Source of the DNA: Candidatus Liptonbacteria bacterium
Lineage (GTDB): Bacteria > Patescibacteriota > Minisyncoccia > UBA6257 > 2-01-FULL-56-20
Reading direction: 5' to 3'
Length of the DNA: 64,000 nucleotides
NCBI GenBank assembly: GCA_016186635.1
Contig: JACPLI010000014.1
Coordinates: 804-64,803 of the forward strand
Program-made: the position numbers and the translations under genes
Shown: positions 9,491 to 44,114 of the stretch, piece after piece
How the letters are laid out: each line of letters starts with the position of its first letter
How positions within the stretch are numbered: the stretch's first letter is position 1
Notes under the pieces: model-generated
Told to the model about the DNA's origin: nothing
The model's database searches: none
What the model saw: only the letters and a program-made list of their open reading frames with translations

Positions 9491-9979
9491 TTATAACGAG
9501 GATAAAAACTCTTGCACGAATGCAGGACTGTTAATTATCAAAGCGCAGTTCTGTAAATTATACCCCTTATATCCCTCAAGCTGCTTGATAACACTGTAAA
9601 TCTGCCGTTTGCTATTTGGCCTGTTAGTGACAAATACCCCGGTGTTATTATCCATTCTTTTATAATCGTGAATCAGGACGCACCGTAAATGCTTGTACAG
9701 AACATTTAAAGAGGAGCCGCACTGTTGCGGACGCTTTTGGTGCAACTGAGAGCATTGAAGCCTACTAATCTGTTTTTTTCTGAGGACGTCATTTTCCTTT
9801 AACTGACGCAGGGTCGTGGGCATATTCTCTTTGATATACCGATCTACACACCCATTAGTAGATAAACTTTCCATAAAACAAAAGGCTATGAGAAGCGCTG
9901 GAACGGGAAGGTTGAGCTCTGAGTACTGGAGTCCCGAAAGAATTTTTCTCGCCTCTCTTTTCAATCTTGACACATCCAT
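9491..9979 (-). CDS. hypothetical protein in AT-rich islet
   Basis: 162-aa ORF inside low-GC segment 9490-10150 flanked by tRNA genes; no motif recognised; may be a fragment of acquired DNA. Confidence 0.3.
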   Translation of the reverse strand: MDVSRLKREARKILSGLQYSELNLPVPALLIAFCFMESLSTNGCVDRYIKENMPTTLRQLKENDVLRKKQISRLQCSQLHQKRPQQCGSSLNVLYKHLRCVLIHDYKRMDNNTGVFVTNRPNSKRQIYSVIKQLEGYKGYNLQNCALIINSPAFVQEFLSSL

Positions 9980-10197
9980 AAGCCAGTTCAGTACCTGTAA
10001 GGACCAGAACCTTGTTCGGGAAGATTATCGAGCCGGTCCCAGTCCTCTTGAGAAAAGTCGTTATAGTAGTCAAACCCAATCCAAAGAAAAAAGATCACGA
10101 ATGCGATGACTACTAACACGGTTATCGCGAGATCCTTGATTCTCCTCATCATTTCTTGATGTTAACACTTCGCCCACACAAAATTTGTAAGCATCTG

Positions 10198-23030: not shown

Positions 23031-23145
23031 AACTCGTTGTACGTTTTCGGTTTCGCCGCCCGTATCGCTTCACGTTGACGTCTTACATATGCCCACACCG
23101 ATACGGGCTACGACACCGTCACCGCTCAACACCAAGTAAAATAAG

Positions 23146-23210
23146 TGGGCCAGGAAGGACTCGAACCTTCGATCCTCTTGGTATAAGCAAGATGCTTTAG
23201 CCGCTAAGTC
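23146..23210 (-). pseudogene. tRNA-like fragment (anticodon arm with loop CTTATAC, T-arm, acceptor 3' strand) lacking matching 5' half
   Basis: minus strand ...GCA-TCTTG-CTTATAC-CAAGA-GGATC-GAAGG-TTCGAGT-CCTTC-CTGGCCC-A; complementary GGGCCAG occurs only ~520 nt upstream (approx 23663-23669). Confidence 0.4.
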
Positions 23211-23256
23211 CCGACGCTCCGGTCGGGACCCCGACCCTGCAAGGCGTCGGGGCTAC
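23197..23256. repeat. double-hairpin element R copy 1 (CCCCGAC..GTCGGGG / TCCCGACC-GGAGC-GTCGGGA / CTTAGCGGCtAAAGCA)
   Basis: near-identical unit at 23591-23660; related hairpin at 28706-28740. Confidence 0.6.
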
Positions 23257-23258
23257 TG

Positions 23259-23329
23259 TGGGCGCACTAGGAATCGGACCTAGGTCGGGCGTGTATAAGA
23301 CGCCTGCTTTGCCATTAAGCTATGCGCCC
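23259..23329 (-). tRNA. tRNA-Ile with rare anticodon TAT (UAU)
   Basis: GGGCGCA-TA-GCTT-AATGGCA-AAGC-A-GGCGT-CTTATAC-ACGCC-CGAC-CTAGG-TCCGATT-CCTAG-TGCGCCC-A; unusual T-loop TCCGATT. Confidence 0.75.
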
Positions 23330-24448: not shown

Positions 24449-25660
24449 CTATTTCACCTTCGCCCGGAAAAAGTGGCGCTTGCCGACTCTGATTGTCTCG
24501 CCGCCGGAAAAAGAAGGCGCCATATGCGGGTCTTTGAGCGCCGCGCCCTCGACATGCACGCCTCCCTGCGCAATGAGCCGCCGCGCCTCGCTTTTACTTT
24601 TCACGACGCCGGTTTTCAGCACCACGTCAAGGAGAGGCAACTTCCCCACTTCCAGATAGGGAATATCCGCATTGTTCACGTCTCTCTCCGAAAAAATTTT
24701 TTTCCAGTCCTTTCGGGCTTTTTCTGCATTTTTCTCACTACAGTATGTCTTTACAACCTCAAAGGCCAAGGCAAGCTTTGCGTCTCGAGGATTATCAAAC
24801 TCTTTAAGCTTCCTAATCTCATCAAGTGGCATAGACGTTGACAATTCTGCAACTCCAGAAATCATCCCATCCGGCATAGCCATCACTCGCCCGAACATTT
24901 CACCCGGGCTATCGTCAAGATTCACTAAACTTGCCTCAGTTTTACTCAATTTTTTCCCAGTATTGGAATCCACGAGCAATTTCACCGCAACAAAGAAATT
25001 ATCCTTCCACACTTGGTCTCGAAAAGCGCGGCCGACATTCATATTAAATATCTGGTCACGACCACCAATTTCTACATTCACTCCAAGTTCTCTACCGTCC
25101 CATCCCTGCAAAAGGGGGTAAATAAATTCTCTTAGTTCTATAGATTTATGTTCTTCTAATCTCTTCTTAAAATCAGCTCGCTCTAACAAATTCTGAACAG
25201 AAAAAGCACCAAGTAGGGATTTGAAAAAATCTTCGAACTTCATCTTTCCAAACCACTCCGAGTTATATCTTACTTGTGCAGCATTCTCGCCTGAAAAATT
25301 CAGAATGCGAGATACCTGCTTCTTGAAAGTCTTCCAGTTCTCTTTAATCTGTTTTGGCGTGAGGGGTTGCCGCGGCGCCATCTTATCCGTCGGGTCTCCA
25401 ACCCGAGCAGTAAAATCTCCGATAAGCAGAATCGCTTTATGGCCAAGATCCTGAAATCTACGAAGGGTCCATAAGCCCGCCGCATGGCCAAGGTGAAGAT
25501 GCGAGCTAGTGGGATCGATACCGAAGTAGAAAGACAGCCGCCGACCGCTTAACAACTCTTTCTCAAACGCTTCAACGGATGGGTACACCATACTGAGCGA
25601 TCGCGTAAGAGCCTCTCTAACAAGCCTTTTGTCTTTCTTCGCCCCCATTTCTTTCTCCAT
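24449..25660 (-). CDS. tyrS: tyrosine--tRNA ligase
   Basis: GIDPTSSHLHLGH (HIGH region), KLSKT (KMSKS), C-terminal S4-like domain; start placed at ATG 25660. Confidence 0.9.
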   Translation of the reverse strand: MEKEMGAKKDKRLVREALTRSLSMVYPSVEAFEKELLSGRRLSFYFGIDPTSSHLHLGHAAGLWTLRRFQDLGHKAILLIGDFTARVGDPTDKMAPRQPLTPKQIKENWKTFKKQVSRILNFSGENAAQVRYNSEWFGKMKFEDFFKSLLGAFSVQNLLERADFKKRLEEHKSIELREFIYPLLQGWDGRELGVNVEIGGRDQIFNMNVGRAFRDQVWKDNFFVAVKLLVDSNTGKKLSKTEASLVNLDDSPGEMFGRVMAMPDGMISGVAELSTSMPLDEIRKLKEFDNPRDAKLALAFEVVKTYCSEKNAEKARKDWKKIFSERDVNNADIPYLEVGKLPLLDVVLKTGVVKSKSEARRLIAQGGVHVEGAALKDPHMAPSFSGGETIRVGKRHFFRAKVK

Positions 25661-28800: not shown

Positions 28801-30012
28801 CTTACTCTTACTTTCATCCCCATGCTCATTTGTATTCTCGCTTTCGGTTTCGACAACGCCCGCCACTCCTCCTTCCTGAGATTCCTCGGGGCGCGTCTGC
28901 GAGCGCACGTCGAGTTTCCACCCGGTGAGCTTCGCCGCGAGCCGCACGTTCTGCCCGCCCTTGCCGATTGCCAAACTCAACTGGTCCTCGGGCACATAGA
29001 CGCGCGCCTCGCGCCGCGGCAAAACCTCAACCTTCTCCGCCTTCGCCGGAGAGAGCGCATTCCCCACAAACGTTCCCGAATCCTCCGACCACTCAATGAT
29101 GTCCACCTTCTCGGGACCAAGCTCGTTCGTCACCGCCATCACCCGCGTGCCGCGCTGACCCACAAGCGCCCCTACCGGGTCCACTCCCTCTGCCTTCGAC
29201 GCAACTGCAACCTTCGTGCGGTTCCCCGCCTCACGCGCAATCGCCTTTACCTCAACCACCCCTTCCGCGAGTTCGGGCACCTCGAGTTCAAAAAGCTTCG
29301 CAACAAATTTCGGGTGTGAGCGGGAGAGCACAATGCCGGGCAAGCGCGTGTCTTCCTGCACCGCGAGCACGAGGAACCGGAGCCGCTCCCCGGAGCGGTA
29401 GTGCTCTCCCGGAATGGACTCATTTGCGAACATCACTCCCACCGTCCGCCCCAAGTCCACATACACGTGCCCGCGCTCGAACCGCTGGACGATGCCGCTC
29501 ACAATCTGCCCTTCCTTATCCCGCCACTCGGAGAGGATGGAGTCACGCTCCGACTCCCGGAGTTTCTGCAAAATGATTTGCTTCGCGGTCTGCGCCGCGA
29601 TGCGGCTGAAGTCCTCGTGCGTCTCAAGCGGGAACAGCATTTCGTCGCCGAGTTTCGCGTTCGGCTTCACTTTTTTTGCTTCGTCTAAAAATACGTGGCG
29701 CTCGGGATTATAGCGCGGCAACACGGTTATCCCCTCTTCGCCCTGCGGCGCAGCCTCCGGCGGCGCCTCTTCCGTCCCCTCTTCCACAATGCGCACGGTG
29801 GATTCATCCACCACGGTTTTCACATGCCAAAAACGCAGCTCTCCTGATTTTGAATCGAGCTTCGCGCGCACCACATCACCCCGCGCCCCATACTCTTTTT
29901 TGTATGCGGCAGCAATGGAAGATTCGATTGCCTCAAGCACACGCTCGGGCTGAAGCCCTTTCTCCTCCGCAACTTGCTTGAGCGCGCGGGATATATCTTT
30001 GATATTCAGCAT
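28771..30012 (-). CDS. nusA: transcription termination/antitermination factor NusA
   Basis: N-terminal domain, S1 and KH domains (e.g. [32 protein letters not shown]). Confidence 0.9.
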
Positions 30013-30230
30013 CGAAATATTCTAATTAAAAATTCCGCATACGCGGAATTAAAATCCTTAACCTCATCTTACCCCCACAGAGAACGCCCGTCAAACGGCG
30101 CTTGTCCTATTTCCTGCGGGGACGCTGTCTGCGGCGGGCTGCCGCAACGCTCACTCTCGTGCCGCCGCACTGCGAGAAGCCCCGCAAGAAACAGGACTGC
30201 GCACTATTGGAAATATAACAAGGAACGTAA

Positions 30231-30593
30231 CTAGCACACATTCTCATAGTGGCGGATGTCCTCTCCCCCGTCATCCAGGAGCGTAATCGCCACGAGGTCA
30301 ATGCGCCAACCCCTTTTGTCGCGGAAAAGCTCGGCGTGCTCGTTCGCGAATAGTGAGCACGTTCTCCTCATCTTTGCAATCTTCGCCCGCGACATTTGGT
30401 CTTCCGGCTGGAGCCGCCCCTCCCGCATCGTCTTTACCTCCACAAACACAAGTGTCCCGTTGGGACTCTTTGCCACAATATCCAGTTCCCCCCATGGCTT
30501 GCGATAGTTTCTCTCCAAAACCCGATAGCCCTTTTTAGAAAGGGATTTGCAGGCGATTTCTTCGCCGAGTTTCCCGATTTCACTCTTTTCCAT
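30231..30593 (-). CDS. yraN: YraN/UPF0102 family endonuclease
   Basis: GKLGEEIACKSLSKKGYRVLERNYRKPWGELDIVAKSPNGTLVFVEVKTMREG matches UPF0102 motif. Confidence 0.75.
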   Translation of the reverse strand: MEKSEIGKLGEEIACKSLSKKGYRVLERNYRKPWGELDIVAKSPNGTLVFVEVKTMREGRLQPEDQMSRAKIAKMRRTCSLFANEHAELFRDKRGWRIDLVAITLLDDGGEDIRHYENVC

Positions 30594-30630
30594 TACATTG
30601 TGTGCACGCGTTAAACATTATATGATTTAT

Positions 30631-31071
30631 ATGAATCGTAAAGCGATAAACATGGAATTATCCTACGAATACATACGCGGTGTGGTTGAAGGAGAAGGAT
30701 GTTTTACATTCTCAAAGTCAAACGGGAGAAAAATTCCTGCTTTTGCAATAAGAATGCACATTCGAGACAAGAGCTTGATATGTGCAATACGAGATACTCT
30801 TGGATTAAGAAATAAGGTTTATGTCTATGATTATCAAGCAAAGGACAGGATAGAAAGAGCACCACAGGCAACGCTGATAGTAAGAGAATTTGGTCAACTC
30901 AAAAACATAATAGTTCCATTCTTTTACAAAAGGTTAAGGGGGAACAAACGAAATCAGTTTGAACTGTGGTTAGAGAAGATAGGTAACGATCCAAGCGTAC
31001 CAGAGAGTTTTAAATTCATATACAAGATTTACAAAGCAGGGTTCTATGATAAGAATCCAAAGTTTCCATAG
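30631..31071 (+). CDS. LAGLIDADG-family homing endonuclease (single-motif, free-standing)
   Basis: YIRGVVEGEGCFTF is a LAGLIDADG motif variant; ~147 aa; sits in AT-rich islet 30594-31290; start could also be ATG 30622 or 30652. Confidence 0.65.
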   Translation: MNRKAINMELSYEYIRGVVEGEGCFTFSKSNGRKIPAFAIRMHIRDKSLICAIRDTLGLRNKVYVYDYQAKDRIERAPQATLIVREFGQLKNIIVPFFYKRLRGNKRNQFELWLEKIGNDPSVPESFKFIYKIYKAGFYDKNPKFP

Positions 31072-31170
31072 GGTAGCATTGAAAGTTTGGACTAGTACAG
31101 ACGTTTGCCGCTTGACAAAGATATTCAATGAAAATTTATATAAAATTGAGAACCGCATTATTTTCCAATG

Positions 31171-31227
31171 GTTTGTCAGTGTTTTACAAGATTTTCCCAA
31201 TTTCTGACAAACAAAAAAGTTTGTCAG
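31171..31227. promoter_or_regulatory. three TTTGTCAG sites in inverted arrangement (putative operator)
   Basis: gtttgtcag (31171-31179), ctgacaaac (31204-31212), gtttgtcag (31219-31227) upstream of dksA-like gene. Confidence 0.35.
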
Positions 31228-31444
31228 GACTGTATGTGAGGAGAGAATTTTGAGCTAATTTTCCATATTTTTGCCGGATTAACTCGGCAAAGGATTGCCT
31301 ATTTTACCTGCCTCTTTCTTGCCGATTTATCCACCTACTCTTGCCGCATACAGGGGATTATCCACAGAATCGTGCACAGATGGGGGCGACCGGCCAATCA
31401 ACCGCCACTCAGCAACTTCATCGAGATTGTGGGTGGGGGAGCAT

Positions 31445-31798
31445 ATGCAGTGTGGTATGCTAGTCCCTATGGACACAAAAAATCTTGCACACTACAAAAC
31501 GCTCCTTGAGCGGCAGAAAGAAGAACTGCTTCGGGAAATCGCCTCCCACGCACAGAAGGAAGATTTCGGGAGCGATGTGGATTCCTCCGACGAGGCAACC
31601 GATGAAGCAGAAGAGGCGGGCAATCGGCTCGCAATCGTCGAGTCGCTCAAGGAAGATGTCGGTGAAATAGATTCCGCGCTCGAGAAAATCCGCCGAGGAA
31701 CCTACGGCGTCTGCGAGCGCTGCGGCGCATCAATTGAAGAAGAAGTGCTCACTACTGCGCCCGAATCTGCAGTATGCCGCTCGTGCAAGAAAAAATAG
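31445..31798 (+). CDS. DksA/TraR-family C4 zinc-finger protein
   Basis: C-terminal GTYGVCERCGASIEEEVLTTAPESAVCRSC four-Cys finger plus coiled-coil; start ATG uncertain (31445, 31457 or 31469). Confidence 0.65.
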   Translation: MQCGMLVPMDTKNLAHYKTLLERQKEELLREIASHAQKEDFGSDVDSSDEATDEAEEAGNRLAIVESLKEDVGEIDSALEKIRRGTYGVCERCGASIEEEVLTTAPESAVCRSCKKK

Positions 31799-31807
31799 GC
31801 ACGTCCG

Positions 31808-33331
31808 ATGCGCGACCACCTCGCCCGCGTGCACTCCGCAGAACTTGAGGGAATTAACGCGCGCCCCATCGAAGTTGAAGTTGACCTCAACGTCGGCCTC
31901 CATGCGTTCAACATTGTGGGACTCGCCGACAAGGCGCTGAACGAAGCGCGGGAGCGCGTGAACTCCTCGCTCAAAAATTCCGGCGTAAAGCCGCCGAACA
32001 GGGAAAACCGGAAGATTACGGTGAACCTCGCTCCCGCTGACGTAAAAAAAACGGGTTCGCAGTACGACCTTGCAATCGCGATAGGGTACCTCCTCGCCAC
32101 GCACCAGATAAAAGATTTTGACGCGAGCGACAAGCTTTTTATGGGAGAACTCGCGCTTGACGGCAGGCTCCGTCCGGTGCACGGAGCGCTCTGCATCAGC
32201 CACATGGCAGCGCAGTCCGGTTTCCGCTACCTCTTCCTCCCCGCGTCGAACGCCAACGAGGCCTCGGTAGTGCCCGACACGCACGTGGTTCCGGTTGAAA
32301 CACTGAATGATGCGATTGCATTCCTTGAGGGAAACCGCTCGCTCGCGCGTCACGCGTACCGCCCCGCCGAGCCGCCCACCGCGAATGTCCCCGACTTCGC
32401 CGACGTCAAAGGGCAGGAGAACGCGAAACGCGCGCTCATCATTGCGGCGGCGGGAGGGCACAATCTCCTCATGAGCGGGCCTCCCGGAGTAGGAAAGAGT
32501 CTCCTCGCGCACGCAATGGTGGGAATACTCCCCGCAATGGAGCCGGAGGAGTCCATTGAAGTTACAAAAATCTGGAGCGCCGCGGGGTTCCCTATGGCGG
32601 GGCTCCTTGCCGCACGGCCGTTCCGCGCGCCGCACCAAACCGCCACGCTTCCTGCAATCGTGGGAGGCGGCAGCGACCCCAAACCAGGCGAAATCAGCCT
32701 TTCGCACCGCGGCGTCCTTTTTCTCGATGAGTTTCCTGAATTTCAGCGTCACATTCTCGAAGCGCTCCGCGCGCCTCTCGAATCAGGCACCGTGCACGTC
32801 GCGCGCGCAAAGGGCGCGCTCACGTTCCCCGCGCGGTTTACGCTTATCGCCGCCATGAACCCCTGCCCGTGCGGATATCACGGCGACCCGGAAAAGGACT
32901 GCAAGTGTGCGCCGTACGAAGTGGTCCGTTACCAGAAGAAAATTTCCGGGCCGCTCACCGACCGCATTGACTTGCACGTCACCGTGCCGCGCGTGCCGAT
33001 TGAGCATCTCCGCGCGCCGCATGCCGCGGCGCTCACGAGCGCGGATGCGCGCGCCGTAATCGAGGCCGCGCGCGCCCGCCAGCGCGAACGGCTCAGCACA
33101 CTCCACATCACCACCAACGCCGACATGAGCTCCAAACACACCGAGTTGCTCGTGCGCATGGACCGGGGAGGGGAGGAGTTTGTGAGCACTCTCACACACA
33201 AAAAAATTTCTCCCCGCGCCTATTACCGCATTTTAAAAACCGCCCGCACGATTGCTGACATAGAAAATGCAGAATGCGTGTCTTCGGGGCACCTCGCGGA
33301 AGCGTGGAGTTACAGGGTGCGCGAGGAGTAA
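31808..33331 (+). CDS. comM: YifB/ComM-family Mg-chelatase-like AAA+ ATPase
   Basis: 507 aa; N-terminal Lon-like domain, Walker A GPPGVGKSL, sensor regions, C-terminal ChlI-like domain. Confidence 0.9.
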   Translation: MRDHLARVHSAELEGINARPIEVEVDLNVGLHAFNIVGLADKALNEARERVNSSLKNSGVKPPNRENRKITVNLAPADVKKTGSQYDLAIAIGYLLATHQIKDFDASDKLFMGELALDGRLRPVHGALCISHMAAQSGFRYLFLPASNANEASVVPDTHVVPVETLNDAIAFLEGNRSLARHAYRPAEPPTANVPDFADVKGQENAKRALIIAAAGGHNLLMSGPPGVGKSLLAHAMVGILPAMEPEESIEVTKIWSAAGFPMAGLLAARPFRAPHQTATLPAIVGGGSDPKPGEISLSHRGVLFLDEFPEFQRHILEALRAPLESGTVHVARAKGALTFPARFTLIAAMNPCPCGYHGDPEKDCKCAPYEVVRYQKKISGPLTDRIDLHVTVPRVPIEHLRAPHAAALTSADARAVIEAARARQRERLSTLHITTNADMSSKHTELLVRMDRGGEEFVSTLTHKKISPRAYYRILKTARTIADIENAECVSSGHLAEAWSYRVREE

Positions 33332-41468: not shown

Positions 41469-44114
41469 ATGAAAAGCCCCTTCGCTATAGTCCATCACTT
41501 CATCCGCCGCATTGGGGGAATCTTCCGCTCTGCTTCCCGGCGCACGCGGCTCACCGCCGTGCTCTGTGCTGGTTTCTTCGTACTCGCCGCAGTGCTCCTT
41601 CCTTCGCCAGCGCACGCAGGCGTAGCCGACTTCCTCGGCAGCCTTACCAACACCTTCATCGGCGGCATACTGGGAGGAACCGTCGGGTTTGTCGGATTCG
41701 TCATCTCCTACATCGTGAGCGCCGTGGTCGGCTTCTTCACCGCGCTCGTCGTCTTCGGCATCGGGGTGGTGCTCCAGCTCAACACGAACATCATAAACTC
41801 CGTCGCCGTGCAGGAGGGATTCAAGGTGACACTCTCCATCGCGAACCTCGGCTTCGTCCTCGGCATCATCATTATTGCGATTGCCACCATTCTGCGGTAC
41901 GAGCACTACGGCATGAAGCGCCTCCTCATCAAGCTCATCGCGGCGGCGCTCCTCGTGAACTTCAGCTTGGTCATCGGCGGCGCCATCGTGAACTTCTCCG
42001 ACCGGATGTCCGGCGTGTTCCTCTCCGCCTTCCCGGGCGGCGGAGGCGGCGCCACCGCTTTCGCAGACGCATTCGCCGGAGCATTCGGTCCCCAGCGCCC
42101 CTTCCTCAACCAAACCATCAAGGATGCGGACACCATCTCAAGCGCCGAGGATTTGGAAAAAGTCGCGGGCGCCGGCTCCGCAGGACAAAGTTTGGGCACG
42201 CTCTTCGTGCCGCTCATCAACCTCATCTTCGTCGCCGCCATCCTTATTGTGATGTTCATCACAATAGCCACGTTCTTCTTCATGCTCCTTGTCCGCTATG
42301 TATATCTCGGCATGCTCCTCATCCTCATGCCTTTCGCGTGGCTCCTGTGGGTCTTCCCCTTGACCGAAGGCATCTGGAAGAAGTGGTGGGATAAATTCCT
42401 CAAGTGGACGTTCTTCGCGCCGATTTCGCTCTTCTTTATGTGGCTCGTGATTATCACGGGGCAGGTAATGTCCTCGGGGAATGCGGCGGACCCGTCCCAG
42501 GGGCTCCAAGGGCTCGCGTACATCGCGCCGCCCGACAGCTACGCGCGTGGCTTGAAGAGCTTCGTGGGGAGCGCCGCGAACCAGGTGATGGGCACCTTCC
42601 TCCAGGCGGCGGTTCTCGTGGGGCTTGCCATCGGCGGCCTCATCGCCGCGGAGAAATTCTCCATCACGGGGTCCCACGCGGCGATGGGCGCGGTAAAGGG
42701 CATCGGAAAAGCGGCACAGGGGTATGTGGGGAAACGCGCGAGACAGGCGGGCGGAGCGATTCTCCAAAAAGCGGGGGTGCAAAATGCCGCGACCGCACTC
42801 CAGCAAAAAGGAGCTGCTGCGCTTCGGCAAAGTAACATTAATCTCGGCGCAGGAAGCAAGAGCAGAATCCTTAGGGCCGTAGCAAAGCCGTTTAATTTTG
42901 CCGCGAACGCGGCGGCAAAAGCTCTCGGTTACACCGTCGGGTATGCTCCCGGGGCAGATTATGTCGCGGCGCGTACGGGTCGTGTGATTCAGGCAGGCGT
43001 CGCCGGAGGGCGGAGCGGCTTGATGGGCGGCGCGGAAGCGGATGTGAAAGATGCAACCAAAGGACTCACCGAAGAACAGCAGGCGAACCTCGCAAGCACC
43101 ATGACCGCGCCGCAACGGGTGGCGCTTGTTAAAAAGGCGACAAAGGAAGGATGGCTCGACAAAATTGACAGCAAGTACTACGGCCCCGAAGAAAAGGAGC
43201 GGACATTCAAAGCGCTCGGCCAGGAAAAGGCGTATGACGATGCATTTAAGGCGAGCCAAGGGGCAGGAGAAAAGAAACCATACGCGGAAGAACAAGATAA
43301 GGCGAGAGGAGTGGCAAAACAAGAAGCGGAAATGTGGGCAGAAAGACAGGGTCTCCCCCACAAGACCGATATTTCAGAAGCGGGGAGGATAGCGTATGAG
43401 ACCGCAAAAACACATGGGGATAGCGATAAAGACGCGGAGGAAAGGCGAAATAAAGCAATAGCAGTCGCAAGATACAGAAAGGGTCAGGTTGCGTATGAAG
43501 AAGCAAAAGCGCACGGAGATAGTGATGAAGATGCAGAAAAAGCTAGGGGAAAGGCGCTCGAAAAAGCCCAAGAGCCCTCCGAATACGAAAAGTTTGTAAA
43601 AGAAAAAGTAAAGAAAGCGGAAGAAGAAACAATGGCTGATGAAGTAGACCCGGAGACAGGGAAGAAAACCGGAAGAAAAGTAAACGCACAGGAGAAAATC
43701 AAAGAAATTACAGGCAAAGCTACGGAAGACTTAAAGAAAGGAGACAAAGTGCAGTATAAAGAAATCTTCGGCGACAAGGCGGCGTTTGGATTGAGCAAAG
43801 AAAGCATCAAAGCGATGGGCGAGGTATTTGCCCAAAAAGTGGCTTACTCGAACCAACAACTCATCCCGAATATCATCTCTAAGATGAGTGCGAAGCAATT
43901 TGATGGATTTAAGAAAATGTATACAAAAATCCTCAAAGACGGCATCGCCTCCACGAGCGGCGACCAAAAGAAGTATTTAGAAGAAGGTCTCGACAGATTC
44001 ACCAAGAAAATCCTTGCACACCACATGACAGGCGCCGCGCACGAAGGAGGAGGAGGTGAAGAAGAACACGCCGCGCCCGCGCCCCCTCCTCCTAGCGGCG
44101 GAGGCACAACTTAA
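41469..44114 (+). CDS. VirB6/TrbL-like polytopic membrane protein with long K/E-rich C-terminal extension
   Basis: 881 aa; N-terminal ~420 aa with >=6 TM helices in the arrangement typical of VirB6/TrbL, then hydrophilic charged tail; immediately upstream of PrgI-like and VirB4-like genes. Confidence 0.5.
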   Translation: MKSPFAIVHHFIRRIGGIFRSASRRTRLTAVLCAGFFVLAAVLLPSPAHAGVADFLGSLTNTFIGGILGGTVGFVGFVISYIVSAVVGFFTALVVFGIGVVLQLNTNIINSVAVQEGFKVTLSIANLGFVLGIIIIAIATILRYEHYGMKRLLIKLIAAALLVNFSLVIGGAIVNFSDRMSGVFLSAFPGGGGGATAFADAFAGAFGPQRPFLNQTIKDADTISSAEDLEKVAGAGSAGQSLGTLFVPLINLIFVAAILIVMFITIATFFFMLLVRYVYLGMLLILMPFAWLLWVFPLTEGIWKKWWDKFLKWTFFAPISLFFMWLVIITGQVMSSGNAADPSQGLQGLAYIAPPDSYARGLKSFVGSAANQVMGTFLQAAVLVGLAIGGLIAAEKFSITGSHAAMGAVKGIGKAAQGYVGKRARQAGGAILQKAGVQNAATALQQKGAAALRQSNINLGAGSKSRILRAVAKPFNFAANAAAKALGYTVGYAPGADYVAARTGRVIQAGVAGGRSGLMGGAEADVKDATKGLTEEQQANLASTMTAPQRVALVKKATKEGWLDKIDSKYYGPEEKERTFKALGQEKAYDDAFKASQGAGEKKPYAEEQDKARGVAKQEAEMWAERQGLPHKTDISEAGRIAYETAKTHGDSDKDAEERRNKAIAVARYRKGQVAYEEAKAHGDSDEDAEKARGKALEKAQEPSEYEKFVKEKVKKAEEETMADEVDPETGKKTGRKVNAQEKIKEITGKATEDLKKGDKVQYKEIFGDKAAFGLSKESIKAMGEVFAQKVAYSNQQLIPNIISKMSAKQFDGFKKMYTKILKDGIASTSGDQKKYLEEGLDRFTKKILAHHMTGAAHEGGGGEEEHAAPAPPPPSGGGTT

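Follow-up and report, generated by a model that had tools for sequence, protein, structure and literature searches.

How might a homing-type endonuclease gene persist in a bacterial chromosome without an intron, an intein or an essential gene as its target? The question is raised by a 64,000-nucleotide stretch of Candidatus Liptonbacteria DNA (contig JACPLI010000014.1, positions 804 to 64,803; this whole stretch is called the window here), in which a LAGLIDADG gene stands head-to-head with yraN inside an AT-rich islet. To our knowledge, bacterial chromosomes seldom carry free-standing LAGLIDADG genes, and little is understood about them; full-text literature searches turned up no account of the family or its association with yraN, nor one of a homing endonuclease linked to parS. 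As set out below, the window open reading frame (ORF) is an intact, free-standing, single-domain LAGLIDADG gene, and it behaves as a mobile cassette; the manner in which it might maintain itself, for which we propose one scenario, has to be weighed against several rivals.

The open frame runs from 30547 to 31071 on the forward strand and offers three in-frame ATG codons, at 30622, 30631 and 30652. Read from the second of these (146 aa), its product matches Pfam LAGLIDADG_1 (PF00961) at 35.2 bits against a cut-off of 23.1 (E=2.4e-8), over profile positions 3-100 of 102, and the homologue in locus L180 scores 42.8 bits; the Pfam check that the initial annotation of this DNA had named is thus passed. 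Because both the homologue alignment (A2) and a conserved 16-mer abutting the ATG at 30652 favour that codon, we consider it the likely start, which gives a protein of 139 aa (MELSYEYIRGVVEGEGCFTF) encoded by 30652..31071 (+), with 30631 and 30622 as alternative starts. The initial annotation was right that the gene diverges from yraN; against its figures of ~147 aa and 29-40 nt, the product has 146 or 139 aa, and the two genes are separated by 28, 37 or 58 nt, depending on the ATG chosen.

Pfam is joined in supporting this gene by PDB sequence matches, by an AlphaFold2 model, by Foldseek and by GC content at third codon positions (GC3, given below). In the homologue alignment the motif of the window protein reads IRGVVEGEG, with the catalytic Glu kept; among PDB sequences, the protein is matched best by the N-domains of I-HjeMI, bI3 maturase and I-AniI. 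The AlphaFold2 model, a monomer built from a 39-sequence alignment, has a pLDDT of 92.3 and consists of an alpha-beta-beta-alpha-beta-beta-alpha core (H12-22, E23-30, E33-43, H44-57, E63-66, E79-84, H87-98) followed by three C-terminal helices; the best 50 Foldseek matches listed against PDB are LAGLIDADG proteins throughout, bI3 maturase being the best structural match. Lys106, counted from the ATG at 30631, is nearly invariant in the family and aligns with K94, the last residue of the I-AniI N-domain match, which we take to be an active-site lysine. The profile, the fold and the catalytic Glu together uphold the original assignment of a free-standing, single-motif LAGLIDADG gene, of which the 64-kb window holds one copy only. 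Since it has the size of a single domain, the protein is expected to dimerise; this size implies a protein of the kind predicted to act as a homodimer, and the predicted mode of action is most like that of the I-CreI-type homodimeric enzymes.

The family to which the gene belongs is confined to a clade of Patescibacteria that comprises Liptonbacteria, Niyogibacteria and relatives; the window protein itself is 100% identical to an entry from an NCBI metagenome-assembled genome (Candidatus Liptonbacteria, Patescibacteria/candidate phyla radiation, CPR). A word-indexed search returned 208 homologue matches, nearly all of 135-180 aa and 52-80% identical, and of 1.84 billion cluster representatives scanned exhaustively with HMMER only 298 reached E<=1e-3. 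A phage origin was considered and rejected, as viral contigs hold distant relatives only, whose identity is <=33% along the aligned domain and rises to as much as 42% only in 30-40-residue fragments. Most comparisons below draw on 74 unique metagenome loci, which were collected with DNA patterns encoding conserved motifs and are therefore biased to intact copies; their members have 135-161 aa. In 66 of the 74 (~90%) the gene is head-to-head with yraN, a pairing that persists in loci whose dksA-comM is missing from the downstream side or is placed beyond yraN, and in five it is found instead between rpsT and uppS, the downstream repeats still being there. A repeat-rich non-coding block of the same kind follows the gene on its 3' side in every context. 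Six homologues on long contigs share the order yraN (reverse), LAGLIDADG gene (forward), a gap of 290-590 bp, and dksA-comM (contexts L001-L011); linkage to dksA-comM is not universal among the 74 loci, and in the window dksA-comM begins ~400 bp beyond the LAGLIDADG gene. As side observations on these neighbourhoods, the module often adjoins strain-variable, poorly characterised genes; AbiEii and HicA/HicB genes lie <=3 kb from it in L180:4811-5467 and L183:5420-5909; and in L007 (L007:1-3479) a gyrA gene near the locus bears a LAGLIDADG_3-containing intein, a second and unrelated LAGLIDADG element.

The mobility of the cassette is seen in its patchy occurrence, its own base composition, a genealogy decoupled from those of adjacent genes, and breakpoints at the repeats. 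Occupancy was sampled through YraN homologues, not through the LAGLIDADG protein: among the five contexts obtained in this way the gene is present in two (L180, from Niyogibacteria, and L183) and absent from three (L181, L182 and L184), and among the matches listed for ComM loci from GTDB, at <=55% identity, 0 of 80 carry it. Its GC3 is 0.23-0.46 against 0.35-0.73 for neighbouring genes in seven genomes, and 0.35 against 0.57-0.72 in the window, this AT-rich gene residing in hosts whose GC content is 43-57%. In pairwise comparisons, the identity of the LAGLIDADG proteins correlates weakly with that of YraN (Spearman 0.20, 1711 pairs) and of ComM (0.11), and close genomes with conserved flanks carry LAGLIDADG alleles that are just 48-58% identical. 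Thus ComM and the LAGLIDADG protein are 94% and 57% identical between L097 and L123, and 92% and 56% between L008 and L152; between L152 and L132, YraN is 91% and the LAGLIDADG protein 48% identical, with a synonymous divergence (dS) of 0.76 for yraN and a saturated one for the LAGLIDADG gene. L118 and L129 present the reverse case, dS being 0.25 in the LAGLIDADG gene and 1.22 in the adjacent yraN.

The boundaries of the exchanged segment can be followed in DNA alignments. Between L152 and L132 (A3), identity is 93-97% in yraN and in the distal repeat block, and ~55-60% in between, a segment comprising the promoter, the ORF and everything up to the last 3' 16-mer, and L008 and L132 (A4) have the same cassette pattern. 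L118 and L129 form a four-part mosaic: 100% identical to the left of yraN, diverged inside yraN, 90-100% identical over the stretch that begins at the promoter and ends 93 bp past the stop, and then unrelated, the similarity ending exactly after GTGAAACA-N7-TGTTTCACA with different genes beyond; in L108/L110 similarity is lost ~100 bp past the stop. Among the origins that the initial annotation had suggested for the gene, a homing cassette is hence the best fit, given its absence from the syntenic L184, the decoupled genealogy and dS, and the divergent alleles between conserved flanks. We note in passing that the yraN of L118 (L118:2501-2923), with 75% aa identity to that of L129 and a dS of 1.2, has on its left a flank that is 100% identical in the two loci and on its other side a LAGLIDADG module of 95% identity; exchange may thus affect yraN alleles as well.

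Did the islet come with the gene? The islet, gene and repeat block together (30577..31300, GC 0.35), is the window minimum: 30577-31276 is the lowest-GC 700 bp of the 64 kb (0.351, the next lowest being 0.406 and the window mean 0.57), and 30594-31300 has a GC of 0.356, so the ~700-bp low-GC block described earlier around the gene is real. The idea that it marks the arrival of the gene did not hold up. In L184 the order PPase-nusA-yraN, a 553-bp gap and dksA-comM reproduces the synteny of the window, and no LAGLIDADG match is found there even at E<=1; the gap has a GC of 0.347 against 0.578 for the locus, and it keeps palindromes, the TAGGTTTT element and TTGCCGGATT repeats. Because this gene-less relative retains both the low-GC gap and the repeats, the islet was not imported with the gene. 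The initial annotation had taken an islet common to all relatives to speak against a cassette, and the outcome is divided: the equivalent islet is low in GC in all six relatives measured, and L184 is without the gene. From these comparisons the islet is best read as a diverged parS-like array, with the gene inserted at its yraN-proximal edge. An attempt to map the insertion junction against L184 was given up, as the empty site is too diverged and the palindromes alone align. Another gene-less locus, L182, has a 223-aa ORF directly upstream of yraN (L182:2306-2977; GC 0.32 vs 0.44) with an HTH-like N-terminal segment and the string 'LYWAEGGK'; it was considered as LAGLIDADG-like and set aside, Pfam, NCBIfam and PDB sequence searches being empty. 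Further low-GC stretches of the window are 24656-25355 (0.41), 9491-10190 (0.42) and 43316-44015 (0.44; AT skew ~0.5).

The repeats that give the array its parS-like character include a 16-mer, consensus TGTAAAnCGnnAAACA, which shares with parS its length, the TGT...ACA ends, the central CG and the right half. It has 55 matches within 100 bp 5' of the ORF, 55 within 100 bp past the stop and ~10 elsewhere in the 74 loci; relatives have one to four copies <=100 bp past the stop, in either orientation, and in most loci the two ends of the ORF lie within 0-40 nt of 16-mers. The 5' copy in the window, CGTAAAGCGATAAACA (30637..30652, +), matches both GTAAANCNNNAAACA and TGTWWWNCGNNAAACA better than any other site of the 64 kb, and it ends in the A with which the likely start codon at 30652 begins; a degenerate 3' copy with 2 mismatches, TGTCAAGCGGCAAACG in the minus-strand reading, occupies 31102..31117, 31 nt past the stop. 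When the upstream and downstream 16-mers of one locus are compared at four variable positions, 25 of 58 are fully identical against 3.5 expected, the maximum in 2000 permutations being 12. A flanking target-site duplication, which had been suggested as a thing to look for, is not found in its classical form; these parS-like 16-mers bracket the ORF instead, and they are inverted as often as direct and often multiple.

Farther downstream, exact GTTTGTCAG sites occur at 31171 (+), 31204 (-) and 31219 (+) and at no other place in the 64 kb, so that the three sites noticed before are indeed unique to the low-GC block. Their description as TTTGTCAG sites was correct as to presence; they are in fact half-sites (TGTTTGTC) of a repeat family common to relatives. 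They fall in a parS-like half-site cluster at 31170..31227, made up of gGTTTGTC (31170-31177), TGTTTTAC (31180-31187) and GACAAACA-AAAA-aGTTTGTC (31206-31225). Within 65-180 bp past the stop, 32 of the 74 loci have the palindrome GnnAAACA-N4-TGTTTnnC, 20 bp long with a 4-bp A/T centre, its arms being complementary in 21 of 36 cases. The idea that the three GTTTGTCAG sites build a hairpin or attenuator in RNA was considered and rejected, the fold being unexceptional (z=-0.85) and lacking a terminator-like tail; since relatives carry direct-repeat versions, we regard the repeats as DNA sites and not RNA. Repeats of TTGCCG(G/A)AT make up 31271..31347 (31271, 31285 in reverse, 31319 and 31341), with an extra TTGCCG at 31105; relatives have 3-8 copies in both orientations, and they are also present in the gene-less L184.

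The scenario we favour, which taken jointly has in our judgement a little better than an even chance of being correct, is a homing-type element that lives on this array. The homodimer would recognise parS-like pseudo-palindromes, namely the bracketing 16-mers and/or the 20-bp palindrome with its 4-bp centre, and would cut such a site in a chromosome without the cassette or with a rival cassette; recombinational repair of the break would then copy the cassette in, with natural transformation perhaps supplying the DNA, and the 16-mer over the gene's own start codon might act as an operator that holds LAGLIDADG expression low. A 20-bp palindrome with a 4-bp centre is the geometry of I-CreI-type homodimer targets. 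YraN has recently been reported as the nuclease partner of the ComM helicase in the resolution of transformation D-loops (bioRxiv 10.1101/2024.02.06.579203).

Several observations weigh against a homing-type element of this description. Intact palindromes persist in gene carriers, which is unexpected for a cleavable homing site. L008 and L132 have identical 16-mers, although their LAGLIDADG proteins are 55% identical and their beta1-beta2 hairpins differ, so that the 16-mers are not strictly allele-specific; strict allele specificity had been entertained as proof of self-recognition, and this pair contradicts it. Metagenome assembly may have produced some of the mosaics as chimeras fused at repeats, although the pattern recurs across projects and sample types. 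Unlike in a classical homing cycle, no degenerate copies were seen in the 74 loci, with search patterns that favoured intact ones. Six of the 74 copies are without the catalytic acid, having K, R or A instead (ESKG x3, EGKG, EGRG and ESAG), and the acid-less lineage L003/L102 evolves at an omega of 0.07, L003 being in the usual position. Because this lineage is still under strong purifying selection, it fits poorly with a purely selfish nuclease, and conserved acid-less lineages point to a non-catalytic role. Lastly, the resemblance of the repeats to parS, together with the perfect parS of a relative (L181), may mean that ParB, not the LAGLIDADG protein, binds them.

The last point, carried further, makes the gene a passenger in a ParB centromere: the repeats would be ordinary parS variants, the gene would have landed in an array that tolerates it, and its real target would be elsewhere or gone. 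As an answer to which protein binds the repeats, we consider this unlikely, though well worth taking seriously. In L181 (Wolfebacteria) a 1.28-kb gap upstream of yraN contains seven perfect and three near-perfect sites of canonical parS (TGTTTCACGTGAAACA), and in L080 (Saccharibacteria) a single perfect site stands 30 bp upstream of yraN; such an association of parS with yraN may hold for Patescibacteria in general. Moreover, the repeats persist without the gene in L184, and they do not track the LAGLIDADG alleles in L008, L132 and L152. A passenger would not, however, be expected to have its ORF ends 0-40 nt from 16-mers in most loci, with upstream and downstream copies that match at their variable positions, nor recombination breakpoints that coincide with the sites. 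The window, besides, has no match to the 16-bp parS palindrome TGTTNCACGTGAAACA within 3 mismatches, and TGTAAAnC, which forms the left half of the 16-mer, differs from the half-sites of parS. As an observation on its own, the gene-free gap of L181 (L181:1990-2920) also has outward-facing half-site pairs and a tRNA-like sequence.

Let us assume, alternatively, that cleavage is dispensable and that the protein is a domesticated host binder of the parS-like sites, acting, for example, to repress yraN and its own gene, or as an accessory factor to the centromere-like array. All 74 sampled ORFs are intact, dN/dS of 0.04-0.17 between close pairs indicates strong purifying selection, and no pseudogenes are among these loci; in seven loci the LAGLIDADG protein is as conserved as ComM (64% vs 67%). 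Glu has been lost at least four times independently (ESKG, EGKG, EGRG, ESAG), the K-variant lineage being the one noted above for its low omega and usual position, and the 16-mer on the start codon and the palindrome in the divergent promoter both look like operators. These findings keep open a binding-only role, such as that of an autorepressor, a yraN regulator or a site-occluding protein. Yet a domesticated gene should not be absent from syntenic or related genomes that keep the islet, its codon composition is host-like in no host, its genealogy and dS are decoupled from those of adjacent genes in both directions, and the catalytic acid is kept in 68 of 74 copies (~92%), as Glu in all of them. 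We consider such domestication rather improbable.

A more elaborate form of the homing-type scenario would find a place for both kinds of copy. Here the homodimer, from its seat at the yraN promoter, would cut the palindromes of a centromere-like array and so drive the exchange of its own cassette and of strain-variable DNA, the catalytically dead variants serving as occluding immunity factors or regulators. On this reading, a speculation that we think rather improbable, the homing element would depend on natural transformation and on a conserved non-coding palindrome, not on an essential gene.

The way in which alleles differ brings in another rival. Differences cluster in beta3-beta4 and in the beta1-beta2 hairpin, which falls into a short and a long class set apart by a 7-aa indel, the C-terminal half being conserved; this hairpin and beta3-beta4 form the predicted DNA-reading surface. 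Very divergent alleles in close genomes, concentrated in such a surface, are what a hypervariable conflict locus would show, i.e. a defence, addiction or exclusion nuclease under diversifying selection, and the strain-variable genes that adjoin the module, as well as the toxin-antitoxin and Abi genes near it in L180 and L183, would suit it. Low dN/dS within allele lineages and the lack of a partner immunity or methylase gene conserved alongside, in the contexts examined among the 74 loci, make this a very improbable explanation.

The remaining possibility of a degraded group I intron or intein whose host gene decayed, raised by the initial annotation and suggested by the intron-encoded nature of the closest solved relatives (bI3 maturase, I-AniI, I-HjeMI) and by the LAGLIDADG-encoding insertions common in CPR rRNA genes (PMC11270868), is effectively refuted and keeps next to no probability, since there is no ribozyme, extein or RNA gene at the locus and no Intron_gpI, tRNA or rRNA signal in searches up to E<=10, the ORF is complete with a start and a stop of its own and is fused to no extein, the free-standing layout is repeated in >70 loci, and 74 of 74 copies are intact and under purifying selection. 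The gene's placement outside any rRNA, tRNA, intron or intein, as first annotated, is accordingly confirmed: no rRNA, tRNA, intron or other Rfam family lies over the region at gathering thresholds, nor at E<=10 in 29950-31850. A group I intron or split tRNA (an idea from PMC13011429) was sought in an Rfam E<=10 scan and with ARAGORN, and none was found. The seven tRNAs of the window are all >6 kb from the LAGLIDADG gene; a tandem tRNA-Ile pair with anticodon TAT lies at 23145-23329, the second member scoring 38 bits only in Rfam.

Turning to the neighbourhood, yraN (30231..30593, -) encodes a UPF0102 protein, a PD-(D/E)XK nuclease, identified by Pfam PF02021 (E=6.6e-22) and by NCBIfam YraN models. 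The divergent intergenic region at 30594..30651 has at 30599-30617 the imperfect palindrome TGTGTGCACGCGTTAAACA, besides -10-like hexamers rich in A and T, and relatives have TGTTnnnC-N(0-3)-GnnnAACA palindromes and TATAAT boxes at the same position; we infer that it acts as a putative promoter region. On the far side of yraN, a 218-bp GC-rich gene-free gap (30013-30230) separates it from nusA, a place where relatives have small uncharacterised ORFs of 128-136 aa (L005:3988-4374, L008:4077-4487). Downstream of the islet come, by Pfam, a dksA/traR-type zinc-finger gene (likely start 31469, end 31798, +) and comM (31808-33331, +). An extended -10-like sequence, TGGTATGCT, precedes the ATGGAC start of dksA (window 31450-31471) and is conserved in the window, L001, L095 and L106; because it is only 7-8 nt ahead of that start, it suggests that the dksA mRNA is leaderless. 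Upstream of dksA (31327-31366) are the DnaA-box-like 9-mers TTATCCACC (31327) and TTATCCACA (31358). A replication origin was considered for the islet and rejected, as there is no skew switch, cumulative GC skew falling on either side, and these two 9-mers are the only ones.

How does this element compare with systems already known? The homodimeric, intron-encoded homing endonucleases I-CreI, I-MsoI and I-CeuI, and the I-ShaI of CPR rRNA insertions (PMC11270868), are like the window protein in having a single LAGLIDADG domain of ~140-170 aa. The I-CreI-type homodimers share with it the acid that ends the motif helix and the alpha-beta-beta-alpha-beta-beta-alpha fold, and the pseudo-palindromic target of ~20 bp with a 4-bp centre expected of them has a counterpart in the geometry of the repeats beside the window gene. 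They differ in their seat, which is an intron or rRNA gene, whereas here it is a non-coding repeat array without a conserved coding or rRNA site, and in sequence the window protein is nearer the mitochondrial group of PF00961 (bI3, I-AniI, I-OnuI) than I-CreI. With the Seg and Mob proteins of T4-like phages and their 'intronless homing' it has in common a stand-alone gene amid conserved genes, patchy occurrence, co-conversion of flanks and one variable intergenic slot; those are, however, GIY-YIG or HNH enzymes of phage genomes, in contrast to a LAGLIDADG protein in a non-coding repeat array of a bacterial chromosome. Yeast HO and mating-type switching likewise tie a free-standing LAGLIDADG-type nuclease to cassette replacement between conserved flanks. 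The likeness is one of resemblance only: HO is intein-derived, has two domains and zinc fingers and cuts MAT, while here the nuclease gene itself is swapped. No silent donor copies of the cassette were seen in the 64-kb window.

WhiA, other domesticated LAGLIDADG proteins and the bI3 maturase have a parallel in the acid-less yet conserved members of the window family. WhiA differs in having two degenerate LAGLIDADG domains and a C-terminal HTH, whereas the window protein has one domain, no HTH and its Glu, and maturases need an intron RNA, of which there is none at the window locus. With parS and ParB the sites share the TGTTT...AAACA arms and the 16-bp length, and L181 has a perfect parS at the same position; the window sites depart from parS in being hybrids (TGTAAAnC-GnnAAACA) or outward-facing half-sites with a 4-bp spacer. 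The parS-like array beside yraN and comM hints that, in ultra-small uncultured bacteria, a selfish nuclease may be connected with natural transformation and with the sites of chromosome segregation. Here a whole family occupies one fixed niche; its natural alleles run to dozens, an empty-site allele is available, and palindromes that are candidate targets lie adjacent, a combination that makes the question with which we began testable. The family also offers compact natural scaffolds for nuclease engineering, putatively homodimeric like the I-CreI-type enzymes and with varied DNA-reading hairpins.

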